A DNA stretch of 64,000 nt from a virus (Duplodnaviria > Caudoviricetes): positions 1 through 64,000 of the IMG/VR virus record IMGVR_UViG_3300021087_001082; one strand, written 5' to 3'. The notes below the pieces were generated by a model that was not told the origin of the DNA, did no database searches, and saw only the letters and a program-made list of their open reading frames with translations. Below, piece by piece: positions 12,002 to 26,813 of this stretch. Each line of letters opens with the position of its first letter. Within the stretch, counting starts at the first letter, position 1. The position numbers and the translations under genes were made by a program.

Positions 12002-12168
12002 ATAACTTTATAATAATTAACAGAAAGGAATAAGCATGGAAGCTATGACACATTGTTCTGAAATAATATCTACTCTCACAACTACACATCTTATTGGGGG
12101 TATAATGTTCTTCGCTATGGCATTTTGTTTAGGAGCACTTTTTGAAAAGATACAGCAGGAGAAAGCGA

Positions 12169-12378
12169 ATGCAGTCAGGTAAGCGAGTCCGACAAGAGAA
12201 TGCTTTAAAGCGTTTAGAGAAAACCGTGATCGCTCATACTGCGGGTCCGGAATTGGTAAATAAGATTTTGGGGGATAAAAAACTCTCCAAAACTTCCGAT
12301 GAGATAGAAAAAATTCGGAAGAAAAAACTGGTCCGCGCCCAGCTAACAATTGATAATACAAAAGCGCGATTAAGATAG
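12169..12378 (+). CDS. small basic hypothetical protein
   Basis: AGGAGA SD before ATG 12169 (MQSGKRVRQ...). Confidence 0.55.
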   Translation: MQSGKRVRQENALKRLEKTVIAHTAGPELVNKILGDKKLSKTSDEIEKIRKKKLVRAQLTIDNTKARLR

Positions 12379-23764: not shown

Positions 23765-25007
23765 ACATCTACAGTTCTTAAATCATAGTTCATTATTATT
23801 AACTACATCTAAAACTAAAATCCTATGTGATCCTTGGTTTAAAGGGACAGCTTTTAGTGATGGGTGGTCATTATTATACGATGAGTCTCATAACATCAAT
23901 GAGTTAGACTTTGACTATATTTGGATGTCACATGAACACCCTGATCACTTTTCAATACCCACATTACGAGAACTGAACAAAAGTTGTACTTTTCTTTTTC
24001 AAGAAACAAAAGATAAGAAAGTAAAAAAGTATCTTGAAGAAAAAGGTCATTTAGTAATAGAGCTTAAGAATAAAGAAGAAACAAAAATTGGTGACTTAAA
24101 GATTACATCTATTGTATGTGATGGCTTTGATTCAAGCCTGTTAGTAAAATATCCTGATGATAAGGTTTTACTAAACATTAATGATGCAATGGTATTAGAT
24201 GATATAGAAGTTGATAAAGTTGATTTACTTACATTTCAGTATAGCTATGCAAATTGGGCTGGTAATAAAGGTGATAAAAAAATACCTAAGTATCTTCAGA
24301 GTATAATAGATAGTAAGAATGATAAGGCAATAGCAAAGTTTAAACCAACTGCTATTATGCCATTTGCGAGTTTTGTATATTTTTCTCATGAAGAAAATTT
24401 TTACTGGAATGACAATAATTGGATAGATCATGTGTTTAACAAATATTTATTTAATGAATCTTTTCTAATATTCCCTAAACCAGATCAATCAATATCATTA
24501 AACAATCTTGAGAAAACACATTATGATCTGTCTGCTTGTGCATTTTGGAAAGACAAATATAAGAATCTAATTATAAAAGATAAAGTTAAGCCACTATCTT
24601 TAGATCAAATTGAAGATTGTTATTTGAAGTTCAATAAAAAACTAAATCAAGAAAATACTATTGATAGTGATCTCTCATTAAATATAAAAATTAATGACCT
24701 AGATAAGATTATTAAGGTTGGATTAGTAGAGACCTCATTTGAAGTAGTTGATGAAGAAGAGACGATTAGTGTCTCATCTGAAACCGCAGGCTTCTTATTT
24801 TCTCAATTATTTGCAAGAGGTACAGTATGTGTTAATTCAAGAGTGTCTTTTAATTATAAAACAGCACACAAATTCTTTTTGTTCTTTTTTATACCTTATG
24901 CAAACAATATTGGAAAATATTTTAAACAGTTTCCAAAAGATGCATATACATCAATAATGAAAACATCAGTAATGAGTGCAATTAATGGAAGTGATAACCT
25001 CGTATGA
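23757..25007 (+). CDS. metallo-beta-lactamase-fold protein (UlaG/CMP-Neu5Ac hydroxylase-like)
   Basis: NHSS, CDPWF, SHEHPDH, NINDA, PFAS. Confidence 0.8.
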   Translation: MDKHLQFLNHSSLLLTTSKTKILCDPWFKGTAFSDGWSLLYDESHNINELDFDYIWMSHEHPDHFSIPTLRELNKSCTFLFQETKDKKVKKYLEEKGHLVIELKNKEETKIGDLKITSIVCDGFDSSLLVKYPDDKVLLNINDAMVLDDIEVDKVDLLTFQYSYANWAGNKGDKKIPKYLQSIIDSKNDKAIAKFKPTAIMPFASFVYFSHEENFYWNDNNWIDHVFNKYLFNESFLIFPKPDQSISLNNLEKTHYDLSACAFWKDKYKNLIIKDKVKPLSLDQIEDCYLKFNKKLNQENTIDSDLSLNIKINDLDKIIKVGLVETSFEVVDEEETISVSSETAGFLFSQLFARGTVCVNSRVSFNYKTAHKFFLFFFIPYANNIGKYFKQFPKDAYTSIMKTSVMSAINGSDNLV

Positions 25008-25060
25008 AAAAAAAACATAGACAACTTTATGATTCATGGAAATATAAAAAAGGAGGCTTA

Positions 25061-25498
25061 ATGGAATTTAATAATCCCATTTTTCAGACCCTATTAGGGT
25101 TAGTGATTTTTTACATTGGTTTAAAAATGTTTTCGGGTGGAATGAAAAGCATGGGTAAGTTAGAACACCTTGAAGTCTTTCTTGGAAATCCTTACTATAT
25201 GTTTATTGGTGGTATTGTGATGACTCTTTTGTGGCAATCTTCATCACTCTCTACTACTGCAATTATCGGATTGGTCGCGAGTGGCGCACTTCCTCTCCCC
25301 GCAGCAATCGGTGCAGTTCTTGGAGCTAACATCGGAACGACAGGTACTATATGGTTAGCAGGGATAATGGTTTCTGATGGAATGCCTCAAGGAATAACAA
25401 AACAGGTAGCCATGGTCCATACAGGAGTCAACCTGTTCATGGCAGTTCTCTTGTTACCATTTGCTCAACATATAGCTAGGTTTATATCAAGATTCTGA
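25061..25498 (+). CDS. Na+/phosphate cotransporter family membrane protein (single repeat)
   Basis: QSSSLST and LGANIGTT motifs; AGGAGG SD before ATG 25061 (ORF open from 25004). Confidence 0.85.
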   Translation: MEFNNPIFQTLLGLVIFYIGLKMFSGGMKSMGKLEHLEVFLGNPYYMFIGGIVMTLLWQSSSLSTTAIIGLVASGALPLPAAIGAVLGANIGTTGTIWLAGIMVSDGMPQGITKQVAMVHTGVNLFMAVLLLPFAQHIARFISRF

Positions 25499-25521: not shown

Positions 25522-25614
25522 TGGCTCTGGGGGTTGGATTCGAACCAACACGCCCCTCTGCAAAAGGGACAATACGTAAACAACGCATCACGTCTACCGT
25601 TTCGTCACCCCAGA
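25522..25614 (-). tRNA. non-canonical type II tRNA, anticodon GTT, 93 nt
   Basis: TCTGGGG TG ACG AAACGGTAGA CGT G ATGCG TT GTT TA CGTAT [22-nt variable arm TGTCCCTTTTGCAGAGGGGCGT] GTTGG TTCGAAT CCAAC CCCCAGA G CCA. Confidence 0.88.
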
Positions 25615-25832
25615 GTCCGTTCTTTTATAAGATGTCCCATTTGATGCTCTGCAAGCGCATCAAGGTCTGTATATGTTTCGTCGCATTCGAAGCAACTAGC
25701 AAATCCATTTTTCTTATAAAAGTTTTCTTCATCTATCATTTCTCTTGCTTGCCTTTGTAGCTCATTTATCACGTCGTGTATTCCATGTCCACCTGGGTAG
25801 ATCGGAAATACTTTATTGCTACTTTTAGGCAT
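25605..25832 (-). CDS. small C2H2 zinc-finger protein
   Basis: CFEC-DET-Y-TDLDA-L-AE-H-QMG-H fits C-x2-C-x3-[FY]-x5-L-x2-H-x3-H exactly; TAATG coupling to the upstream gene. Confidence 0.75.
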   Translation of the reverse strand: MPKSSNKVFPIYPGGHGIHDVINELQRQAREMIDEENFYKKNGFASCFECDETYTDLDALAEHQMGHLIKERTLG

Positions 25833-26704
25833 TACATAAGTCCTGCTCTTTTCATTCCACTAATAAGTCTCGTCATTCCTATTCCACCTCCAAACCTAGG
25901 TCTGAAGTCATGCCCCAGAAATTCATCAAGTTCTGCTTCTACTCTTTCTTCACCGAATAGATCATACAATAAACTGGCATACCCACCATCTGATATTGTA
26001 TGGAATTGTTTCCTCATTTCATCAACATCGGTTGCACGTTCAGCACTACCGATTGTTTCCATGCCACCAATAATAACATCGCATTTATTAGCAAGGCTGG
26101 CAGTTTTTTTCACATCTTGTTGACCAAGTTTCATGTTCCAGAAAGGACTTGTTGATTCCGGAAAATGGGTTAAAAAGAATACATCTCCATATTCTTGATA
26201 CATTTCTTCTTCATGGCCAGCATCTAATTCTTCACCAGTATATTTTGCTAATACACTTTGATACATGCCACCCGGAAAATCTAAATCTTTATATGGAGCT
26301 CTTCCATGATCACAATGAAATCCTAAATGAATTAATAAATCATTTTCCAGTTTTAATAATTCTTCAAAGTCGCCAGGAGCTTCAAATTCAAACATTGGGA
26401 AGATTAGTTCATGTCTTCCTTCTATTGAATTTTGTTCTTGCCTGTAACTTGTGCTAACACAATAACAACCTGGCAGATCAGGTTTAGTTAACAATTCATA
26501 TTCTAACCACATTTGCCCTGTTTGTGGTAATGGCCATATTTGACCATTATAATTATAGGTAGCAACTGTAGTGGGATCTTCGCATGCGGCGAGGATTGAT
26601 AATCTGCTTTGGGTATGTACTTCTTGAAAATTACGTGAGGAAAAAAAGGAACGGAGTTGTGAGACTACATTAGTGAAATCGGTTGGATCGATTAAACTAG
26701 TTAT
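25832..26704 (-). CDS. class IIb aaRS-like (AsnRS/AspRS) catalytic domain lacking the anticodon-binding domain, 290 aa; probable ATA start
   Basis: motif 1 LRSFFSSRNFQEVHT, motif 2 SYRQE...RHELIFPMFEFE, ETIGSAER, motif 3 FGGGIGMTRL; frame is open 64 codons upstream of ATG 26512 back to AAGGAGG-GTATT-ATA. Confidence 0.88.
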   Translation of the reverse strand: MTSLIDPTDFTNVVSQLRSFFSSRNFQEVHTQSRLSILAACEDPTTVATYNYNGQIWPLPQTGQMWLEYELLTKPDLPGCYCVSTSYRQEQNSIEGRHELIFPMFEFEAPGDFEELLKLENDLLIHLGFHCDHGRAPYKDLDFPGGMYQSVLAKYTGEELDAGHEEEMYQEYGDVFFLTHFPESTSPFWNMKLGQQDVKKTASLANKCDVIIGGMETIGSAERATDVDEMRKQFHTISDGGYASLLYDLFGEERVEAELDEFLGHDFRPRFGGGIGMTRLISGMKRAGLM

Positions 26705-26813
26705 AATACCCTCCTTTGATAATTAAAATGTTAACCTCCTTTTATTTCACAAATCTTAATATTTATAGAATCTCTTTATTCAACAAAATTTCTAAATAAT
26801 CATAGGAGGAAGT

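Follow-up and report, generated by a model that had tools for sequence, protein, structure and literature searches.

Why does a T4-like marine phage, with nearly all its genes on the plus strand, keep on its minus strand a synthetase-like enzyme that begins directly at the catalytic core, followed by a tRNA with an asparagine anticodon, when a second, normal tRNA-Asn is encoded at position 1306? The question is raised by a 64,000-nt stretch of DNA (hereafter the window), part of a 76.8-kb IMG/VR virus record (IMGVR_UViG_3300021087_001082) with a gp43-type DNA polymerase and other T4-like genes. Three head-to-tail minus-strand features occupy positions 25522-26716: the genes for an enzyme resembling asparaginyl-tRNA synthetase (AsnRS), a microprotein and a tRNA. 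From upstream to downstream, and including a Shine-Dalgarno-like element, the unit reads:

26709..26716, minus strand: Shine-Dalgarno-like sequence AAGGAGGG, 4 nt upstream of the ATA start, proposed from sequence alone
25832..26704, minus strand: AsnRS-like class IIb catalytic-core protein, 290 aa, start ATA at 26704-26702, stop TAA at 25834-25832
25605..25832, minus strand: C2H2-type microprotein, 75 aa, TAATG-coupled to the enzyme, with its stop inside the tRNA
25522..25614, minus strand: chimeric tRNA(GUU), 93 nt, called by ARAGORN as Asn GTT

We conclude that the enzyme and the tRNA, which we call captive, are strongly linked in both directions and form a conserved unit, retained across hundreds of phages from the ocean. 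The reading that we favour, tentatively and as something short of probable, is that the unit comprises an asparagine-using, dihydroorotate-forming enzyme with the captive tRNA as its partner. The linkage was approached from either side. In the enzyme-anchored set, 600 IMG/VR stretches were matched, 549 of which encode relatives, and the best 80 loci were analysed. A captive tRNA lies directly downstream on the same strand in 60 of these 80 (47 found by ARAGORN, 13 by the covariance model alone); three of the other 20 are cut off (L037, L041, L081) and 17 have no tRNA, which gives 60 of the 77 assessable loci. Eight of the 17 tRNA-less loci have 'GVMAG' in their contig names, and two neighbour clusters with five giant-virus-like loci each have representatives typed as a major capsid protein of nucleocytoplasmic large DNA viruses (L046) and as an mRNA capping enzyme (L083). 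The tRNA-anchored set, built with a D-arm-plus-GUUU pattern, holds 95 loci, and at least nine of its contigs also belong to the enzyme-anchored set. The enzyme is directly upstream in 80 of the 95. The remaining 15 consist of eight loci with short upstream DNA, one with the enzyme 1,053 nt upstream (L178), one true tRNA with no enzyme within 2.1 kb (L230) and five weak or chance matches (L180, L183, L188, L264, L227). L227 has two tRNA-like matches (2212-2334 and 2818-2935, 118-123 nt) that score 38-40 bits on our captive-tRNA model, R1, and are ARAGORN-negative, with no enzyme upstream. In the complete 252-kb genome of phage P-SSM2 the captive tRNA is the only tRNA; in P-SSM7 it follows 6 nt after a gene annotated as 'tRNA ligase', and named phages have the tRNA immediately after the gene. 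The suggestion in the earlier note that enzyme and odd tRNA belong together as a unit has thus survived the co-occurrence test (60/77, with the tRNA almost never found without the enzyme).

The window tRNA is missed by Rfam model RF00005 in a fast gathering run and scores 41.6 bits in a permissive run, against a gathering score of 29. Its homologs, 36 distinct tRNAs, align cleanly: 97.6% of cloverleaf cells pair and double (compensatory) changes occur in 21 of the 25 pairs, a level of pairing and covariation reached by none of 500 shuffles, while slid partners pair in only 41-55% of cells. The window copy combines U1-A72, G73 and an encoded CCA with a Leu-like D arm (3-bp stem) and a long, stem-bearing variable arm, and its anticodon loop reads UUGUUUA, with U37, where the normal phage tRNA-Asn has CUGUUAA. 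Position counts were made on 52 distinct copies, collected via the enzyme gene and not via the tRNA. Near-invariant among them are the GUU anticodon (52), U1 (52), A72 (51), G73 (51) and the encoded CCA (49). Position 33 is U in 43, C in six, A in two and G in one (non-U in 9/52), and position 37 is U in 40, G in eight and A in four, so that A37 is replaced in 48 of the 52. The length varies from 77 to 111 nt, nine of the 52 copies (77-79 nt) have no long arm, and pair 2-71 alternates between C-G and G-C.

The ribosome normally prefers U33 and a modified purine at position 37. Since position 37 is mostly U and position 33 is not fixed, the captive tRNA looks unfit for ordinary decoding. The available part of Giegé and Eriani 2023 (PMC9976931) gives the anticodon and G73 as the bacterial Asn identity, U1-A72 as conferring GatCAB specificity and G73 as an antideterminant for LeuRS and TyrRS; it also records that t6A37 blocks tRNA-Asn aspartylation in yeast. 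Set beside these rules, the tRNA keeps the elements read by host Asn-pathway enzymes and gives up the loop features that the ribosome prefers. A Ser, Leu or Tyr identity, which the long arm might bring to mind, was rejected on the strength of the G73 antideterminant for LeuRS and TyrRS (as given in that part of PMC9976931), the nine armless copies and the switching of pair 2-71. Recognition through the long variable arm, as had been proposed from the window alone, does not generalise, given the armless copies and the spread in length. Outside the family, the best matches of model R1 are tRNA-Leu genes at 60-65 bits (in a megaphage, a CPR genome and neighbouring phage loci; CPR, candidate phyla radiation), and the normal tRNA-Asn of the window scores 40.7 bits. 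Just upstream of the enzyme in the closest relatives (L004, L009, L016, L030), a tRNA-Leu(TAA) and a tRNA-Cys lie on the opposite strand; the tRNA-Leu scores 63-64 bits on the captive-tRNA model and is a possible ancestor of the chimeric tRNA body.

The enzyme carries Pfam domain PF00152 (E=2.6e-18, 66.6 bits, cut-off 25) and no anticodon domain in the Pfam search, the protein beginning at the catalytic core. PF03590 is not reported in that search. A split synthetase was rejected: neither the 76.8-kb record nor the complete genomes of P-SSM2 and P-SSM7 yielded a stand-alone oligonucleotide-binding (OB) anticodon domain (PF01336). The AlphaFold 2 (AF2) model (pLDDT, the model's own confidence measure, 89) has AsnRS as its best structural match (PDB 8TC8, 2XTI, 9SH8 and 1X54; Z 26.0-24.5, root-mean-square deviation (rmsd) 2.6-3.1, ~250 residues aligned), the nearest being 8tc8 and 2xti (Z 26.0, rmsd 2.6-2.7, 250-251 aligned). 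Predicted fold matches follow to archaeal AspRS (Z 24.8), the archaeal-type asparagine synthetase AS-AR (3p8t; Z 22.3, rmsd 2.9, 244 aligned) and GenX (Z 21.7). The family profile likewise matches AsnRS best (2xti, E 2.3e-11; AS-AR, 4e-4). No curated model comes near its cut-off for the window enzyme: it scores 30.2 bits on the AsnRS equivalog model NF003037 (cut-off 414), 14.3 bits on the AS-A model NF005055 (cut-off 389; true AsnRS score 144-211 on the NCBIfam AS-A models) and 14-18 bits on the EpmA models (cut-offs 264-287; TIGR00462, 17.8 against 286.9). PHROGs places it in phrog_29758, function unknown.

Motifs were aligned against references first verified by NCBIfam (three AsnRS, one non-discriminating AspRS, one bacterial AspRS and one LysRS). 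Class II motifs 2 and 3 are intact, with R88/E90, R97-H98, E216, R223 and G272..R279 aligning with the references, and the Arg of GSxxR (Arg223) is common to the family, AsnRS and AspRS. In class IIb AspRS, the Lys of SPQxxK binds the side-chain carboxylate of Asp. The family has instead a (T)GQxxLE that resembles the SGQxx[L/V]E of AsnRS, where the two AspRS have SPQxxK, and for this reason the pocket looks Asn-type.

The family is found well beyond the phages. A prokaryote scan with one genome per species returned 414 relatives, most in CPR/Patescibacteria (~57% identity) and some in Saprospiraceae and Chitinophagales, with a captive tRNA in only five loci, all on contigs of marine metagenome-assembled genomes (MAGs); a search of the ESM Atlas gave only viral clusters of the family itself. 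In a FastTree tree of 151 rows (each with a high-scoring segment pair covering 250 query residues or more and free of stops), the family and the full-length synthetases (AsnRS, AspRS, LysRS) are divided by a long branch. It divides into a CPR clade (48 rows), a mixed giant-virus/Bacteroidota clade (35 rows) and a phage clade (60 rows). The tRNA-bearing rows all fall in the phage clade, where 54 of the 60 have the tRNA, two are cut off and four are without. A 735-kb uncultured megaphage (L003, LR756501) encodes a 291-aa enzyme with an ATG start and no adjoining tRNA; its large tRNA arrays, including three ordinary tRNA-Asn, lie ~100 kb from the enzyme. In CPR the gene stands among housekeeping genes (dus, nudix, dnaX, tRNA-Gln), and the order serS fragment, dus, enzyme, nudix, dnaX, tRNA-Gln recurs in L160, L144, L139, L175, L137, L123, L155 and others. 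A role as the general AsnRS of CPR was rejected as a core function, since only two of 151 sampled Patescibacteria genomes carry the family. Canonical AsnRS exceeds its cut-off in 1/49 CPR carriers against 19/151 genomes of the phylum sample, and GatB is present in 20 of the 22 carrier genomes tested, 17 of them CPR.

Except in CPR carriers, the relatives that lack the tRNA show a tie to pyrimidine synthesis. When the neighbours of 92 tRNA-less loci were clustered and the clusters typed with Pfam, pyrD (PF01180) was found to adjoin the gene in nine loci and a pyrE-pyrF fusion in ten. Counted together, 13 of 75 cellular loci have at least one of them adjacent, as do 11 of the 12 rows of a Bacteroidota subclade. 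Of 12 longer relatives, eight combine PF01180 and PF00152 within a single protein of 584-661 aa, and a ninth has only PF01180 annotated. The C-terminal 277 residues (319-595) of one such PyrD fusion (P0148) share 55% identity with the window enzyme over its whole length, starting at the same TSLI. Neither P0156 (614 aa) nor P0154 (525 aa), two further longer relatives, is a PyrD fusion; one has PF22945 before PF00152 and the other an unannotated extension. The family and PyrB, moreover, are distributed in a complementary fashion. PyrB exceeds its cut-off in 1/20 carriers against 14/14 control genomes and CarB in 5/17 carriers against 14/14 controls, and PyrD is present in 16 of 20 carriers. 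Within the Bacteroidota order of genome G206, three of 81 genomes carry the family, and all three are among the 12 that lack PyrB, an arrangement expected by chance with a probability of 220/85320 = 0.0026. No pyr gene adjoins the unit in the window. Because the family without the tRNA is fused or adjacent to pyrimidine genes in PyrB-less genomes, this tie, which the earlier note had not anticipated, speaks for a metabolic reaction and against simple orthogonal charging.

The reaction, the substrate and any contact between enzyme and tRNA could be as follows. We propose that in cellular genomes the family serves the dihydroorotate step of pyrimidine synthesis. The enzyme would bind asparagine in its AsnRS-type pocket and activate the alpha-carboxyl as Asn-AMP. 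Aminoacyl adenylates react with CO2 to N-carboxyanhydrides, and Asn-AMP could do likewise; the side-chain amide would then attack the new carbonyl and close a six-membered ureide ring. That product, dihydroorotate, is what PyrD acts on, whether fused to the enzyme or encoded beside it. In an infected cell, host PyrD, PyrE and PyrF would convert the dihydroorotate to uridine monophosphate (UMP) for phage DNA. Such a route would bypass carbamoyl-phosphate synthetase (CPSase) and aspartate carbamoyltransferase (ATCase), and a route that needs neither carbamoyl phosphate nor ATCase would match the gene content of the carriers. The phage tRNA would be the dedicated partner of the enzyme and not an ordinary decoder. 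The host could load it with Asn, with GUU and G73 serving AsnRS or a non-discriminating AspRS and U1-A72 serving GatCAB. The ester of Asn-tRNA is activated at the same carbon as Asn-AMP and could feed the same reaction, and a tRNA that can be loaded with Asn and is averse to the ribosome would in this way account for the pairing being confined to phages. Hosts that make Asn only on tRNA are suggested by the control cyanobacterium Synechococcus elongatus, which has a match to GatB and none to AsnA or AsnB. The more specific proposition of a tRNA-dependent, carbamoyl-phosphate-independent entry into pyrimidines, with the enzyme taking either the Asn-tRNA(GUU) ester or free Asn with ATP, we consider rather unlikely; if true, the phage would make pyrimidines past the feedback-controlled CPSase and ATCase steps.

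A number of points weigh against an asparagine-using, dihydroorotate-forming enzyme with a tRNA partner. The carboxyanhydride step is a proposal from general chemistry. In the CPR carriers, the largest cellular clade (48 rows), PyrD was found in 0/3, PyrB in 0/3 and PyrF in 0/5, so that dihydroorotate would lead nowhere there. PyrD was found in 0/5 of the phage records searched, which leaves the scheme leaning on the host. The PyrC picture is ambiguous, with 2/17 carriers over the cut-off and many hits of 180-260 bits below it. Nine PyrB-less genomes of the order of G206 are without the family at E<=1e-40 (G227, G228, G234, G244, G256, G265, G278, G282 and G291); they may be incomplete or hold another replacement. 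MAG incompleteness weakens every gene absence, and three carriers have both AsnA and AsnB. As for the tRNA, giant viruses, CPR and Bacteroidota have the enzyme without it, so it need not touch the enzyme at all. The net charge of the protein has a median of -19 in the phage clade and no extra RNA-binding domain is present, although charge and isoelectric point are uninformative as a hint of RNA binding.

Could the unit instead be a private aminoacylation pair, in which the core enzyme charges tRNA(GUU) with Asn through the acceptor end (U1-A72, G73) and so gives the phage its own translational Asn-tRNA, insulated from host enzymes or anticodon nucleases? The two-way linkage and the retention of the captive tRNA as the sole tRNA of P-SSM2 would be expected of such a pair, and the AsnRS-type pocket motif with intact motifs 2 and 3, a fold nearer to true AsnRS (Z 26.0) than to AS-AR (Z 22.3) and the scarcity of canonical AsnRS in CPR carriers (1/49) all speak for it. 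We nevertheless think it unlikely. Fusions and gene neighbourhoods connect the family to pyrD, it occurs in giant viruses, CPR and Bacteroidota with no captive tRNA, and a tRNA destined for the ribosome would hardly be expected to carry U37 or to leave position 33 free. The invariant GUU implies that a reader of the anticodon matters, which the enzyme does not have. To our knowledge, no truncated class IIb paralog charges tRNA. Equally, the enzyme might serve the pyrimidine route while the tRNA has no direct dealings with it, being a co-transcribed Asn decoder whose altered loop evades a host nuclease or a 3' element for processing or stability of the message. That the enzyme works without the tRNA in other lineages would sit well with this, as would the four tRNA-less rows of the phage clade, the true tRNA with no enzyme nearby and the full Asn identity set kept for host enzymes (by the rules in the available part of PMC9976931). 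Such an explanation leaves unaccounted for the near-confinement of this tRNA type to the 3' flank of one gene (80/95), the retention of the captive tRNA alone in P-SSM2 and the replacement of A37 in 48 of 52 copies, and it too appears unlikely to us.

Least probable of those considered, and quite improbable in our view, is an ammonia-dependent asparagine synthetase, an analogue of AS-AR or AsnA that together with a tRNA-Asn would raise the Asn supply of an AT-rich phage. Its AS-AR-like architecture, a stand-alone core of ~290 aa (Z 22.3), and the finding that 7/17 larger carrier genomes have neither AsnA nor AsnB would fit. A free-Asn route would also be new to hosts like Synechococcus elongatus, with its GatB match and no match to AsnA or AsnB. 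The score of 14 bits against a cut-off of 389 on the AS-A models, the three carriers that already have AsnA and AsnB, and the PyrD fusions and PyrB absence, which it leaves unexplained, count against it. According to the accessible portion of Sheppard 2008 (PMC2330236), AsnA has been found only in genomes that rely on AsnRS instead of GatCAB. The carriers largely reverse this, with AsnRS in 1/49 CPR carriers and GatB in 20/22 carriers, so the behaviour of the family is not that of any known asparagine synthetase.

Returning to dihydroorotate formation from asparagine with a captive tRNA partner, such a unit would be partly like AS-AR and partly like the PylRS-tRNAPyl pair. The enzyme has in common with AsnRS motifs 2 and 3, the Arg of GSxxR and the SGQxxLE-type motif; it differs in the missing OB-fold anticodon domain, an identity of ~20-23%, a score far below the AsnRS model cut-off, a Gln in place of the motif-1 Pro, a longer motif-2 loop and its long tree branch. 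AS-AR (3P8T) and AsnA are likewise stand-alone class II cores (~290 aa) that use ATP on Asp/Asn-type substrates, and AS-AR shows that a shortened relative of AsnRS can take on a metabolic function; however, the match is weaker than that to AsnRS, and the genomic company of the family is different (GatB, no AsnRS, pyrD fusions). As in PylRS-tRNAPyl and other gene-linked pairs, the genes for the enzyme and for a dedicated, atypical tRNA pass on together as a cassette, but the captive tRNA keeps a sense anticodon, GUU, with host-type Asn identity, and the enzyme is widespread without it. Transfer RNAs are used outside the ribosome in other metabolism, with Glu-tRNA serving tetrapyrrole synthesis and a non-proteinogenic tRNAGly cell-wall synthesis, and we know of no case that feeds pyrimidine synthesis. 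The likeness to such systems, among them Asp-tRNAAsn/GatCAB, would be that a tRNA, perhaps unsuited to the ribosome, carries an activated amino acid for a non-ribosomal reaction; here, by contrast, only the order of the genes and the anatomy of the tRNA suggest such a link. Two truncated synthetase paralogs, GluQRS (YadB) and EpmA/GenX, transfer an activated amino acid to a non-canonical acceptor. The anticodon domain is missing in these as in our family, which however scores far below the EpmA cut-offs and shows no link to EF-P or queuosine. In sum, the enzyme does not qualify as AsnRS, AS-AR/AsnA or EpmA by the tests that define them, and the tRNA breaks the rules that the loop of an ordinary tRNA-Asn follows.

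The microprotein between enzyme and tRNA is a clade-local add-on to a core of two genes. It consists of two modules, an N-module (residues ~4-32, ..IP.Y..G.GIH..I.ELQRQ..E.) and a C-terminal finger with the spacing C-x2-C-x12-H-x3-H, which scores 19 bits on Pfam zf-C2H2 (PF00096; cut-off 25.2) and whose spacing is kept in the eight aligned rows, of 12 in total, that have the finger module. Across related loci the modules occur together, singly or not at all: the C2H2 module is present in 12 of the 60 tRNA-bearing loci and the N-module (IPIYKNGxGIH..ELQRQ) alone in ~13 more, while the remaining loci have other tiny open reading frames (ORFs) or just 5-18 nt between enzyme and tRNA. A zinc finger as general partner of the enzyme, which had been suggested from the window, does not hold up against these numbers. 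Microprotein clusters number only 26 in a set of 5.8 billion proteins. The ~30-aa module (..IPIYKNGxGIH.LI.ELQRQ..EL) forms a translationally coupled micro-ORF after the enzyme, sometimes duplicated or fused to the C2H2 module, in the window and in L011, L012, L015, L019-L024, L039, L040 and L047; several such micro-ORFs lack a stop before the tRNA and read into its gene. Complex predictions of microprotein with enzyme gave run scores of 0.00, 0.56 and 0.00, which count neither way.

The reading frames of the unit bear out most of what the earlier note had claimed for it: an AsnRS-like enzyme without an anticodon domain (Pfam gives PF00152, in an open frame), a 75-aa ORF coupled to it by TAATG and a GTT tRNA (ARAGORN, 25522..25614) whose 5' end lies over the microprotein TGA, as well as the normal tRNA-Asn at 1306. 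The ATG of the microprotein shares the A of the enzyme TAA, and the first 10 nt of the tRNA overlap the microprotein ORF, its TGA included. The enzyme frame extends uninterrupted from one stop to the next (25832..26722, minus strand; 296 codons), with no ATG, GTG or TTG before the ATG at 26512. The P-SSM7 and P-SSM2 enzymes begin MTSLIDP, for which the window equivalent is I-I-TSLIDP, and IMG/VR homologs start with ATG, TTG or CTG at the codon that matches the window ATA. As homologs start at this codon and no ATG, GTG or TTG precedes 26512, we place the start at ATA 26704-26702, predicting a protein of 290 aa. Contigs from two DNA runs of other studies are letter-identical to the window over 26222-26800 and 26364-26800, which excludes an assembly error as the source of the ATA. 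Exact matches to 25819-26613 and 25549-25703 come from contigs of two RNA libraries; DNA carry-over is possible and no ends are visible, and these contigs were not used as evidence. A scan for promoters and terminators gave nothing above shuffles except the variable arm of the tRNA.

The description of the unit as the only credible one on the minus strand was nearly right. The window has ten minus-strand ORFs of at least 100 aa, and eight of them overlap longer plus-strand ORFs or tRNA; besides the enzyme, however, the ORF at 12017..12361 also stands free (minus strand, 114 aa, TTG start, between tRNA-Cys and tRNA-Tyr, with no Pfam or PHROG match). Convergent on the captive tRNA is a plus-strand ORF at 25004-25498 (164 aa) with a partial match to a Na+/Pi cotransporter (PF02690, profile positions 1-102 of 137), which may be a phage phosphate-uptake fragment.

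A literature search found no paper that describes the enzyme-tRNA cassette, though supplements may list the gene. In the available part of Sullivan 2010 (PMC3037559), T4-GC194 is listed only as 'tRNA ligase', in two phages, and the accessible portions of PMC7824862, PMC5389517 and PMC12801897 contain nothing on the cassette. Whichever explanation holds, the 'tRNA ligase' and 'tRNA-Asn' annotations that P-SSM2 and P-SSM7 have carried since 2005-2010 mis-describe the unit. The cassette may represent a metabolic module linked to a tRNA, of a kind not yet described, rather than an extra synthetase. If enzyme and tRNA were a private charging pair, genetic-code engineers could turn to them as a minimal synthetase-tRNA pair that occurs in nature, and if the tRNA is a partner of the enzyme, this would be a new case of a tRNA recruited to metabolism. 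Should dihydroorotate indeed be made from asparagine, it would represent new chemistry for the synthetase fold and a new pyrimidine route in some Bacteroidota and giant viruses and in very abundant ocean phages.

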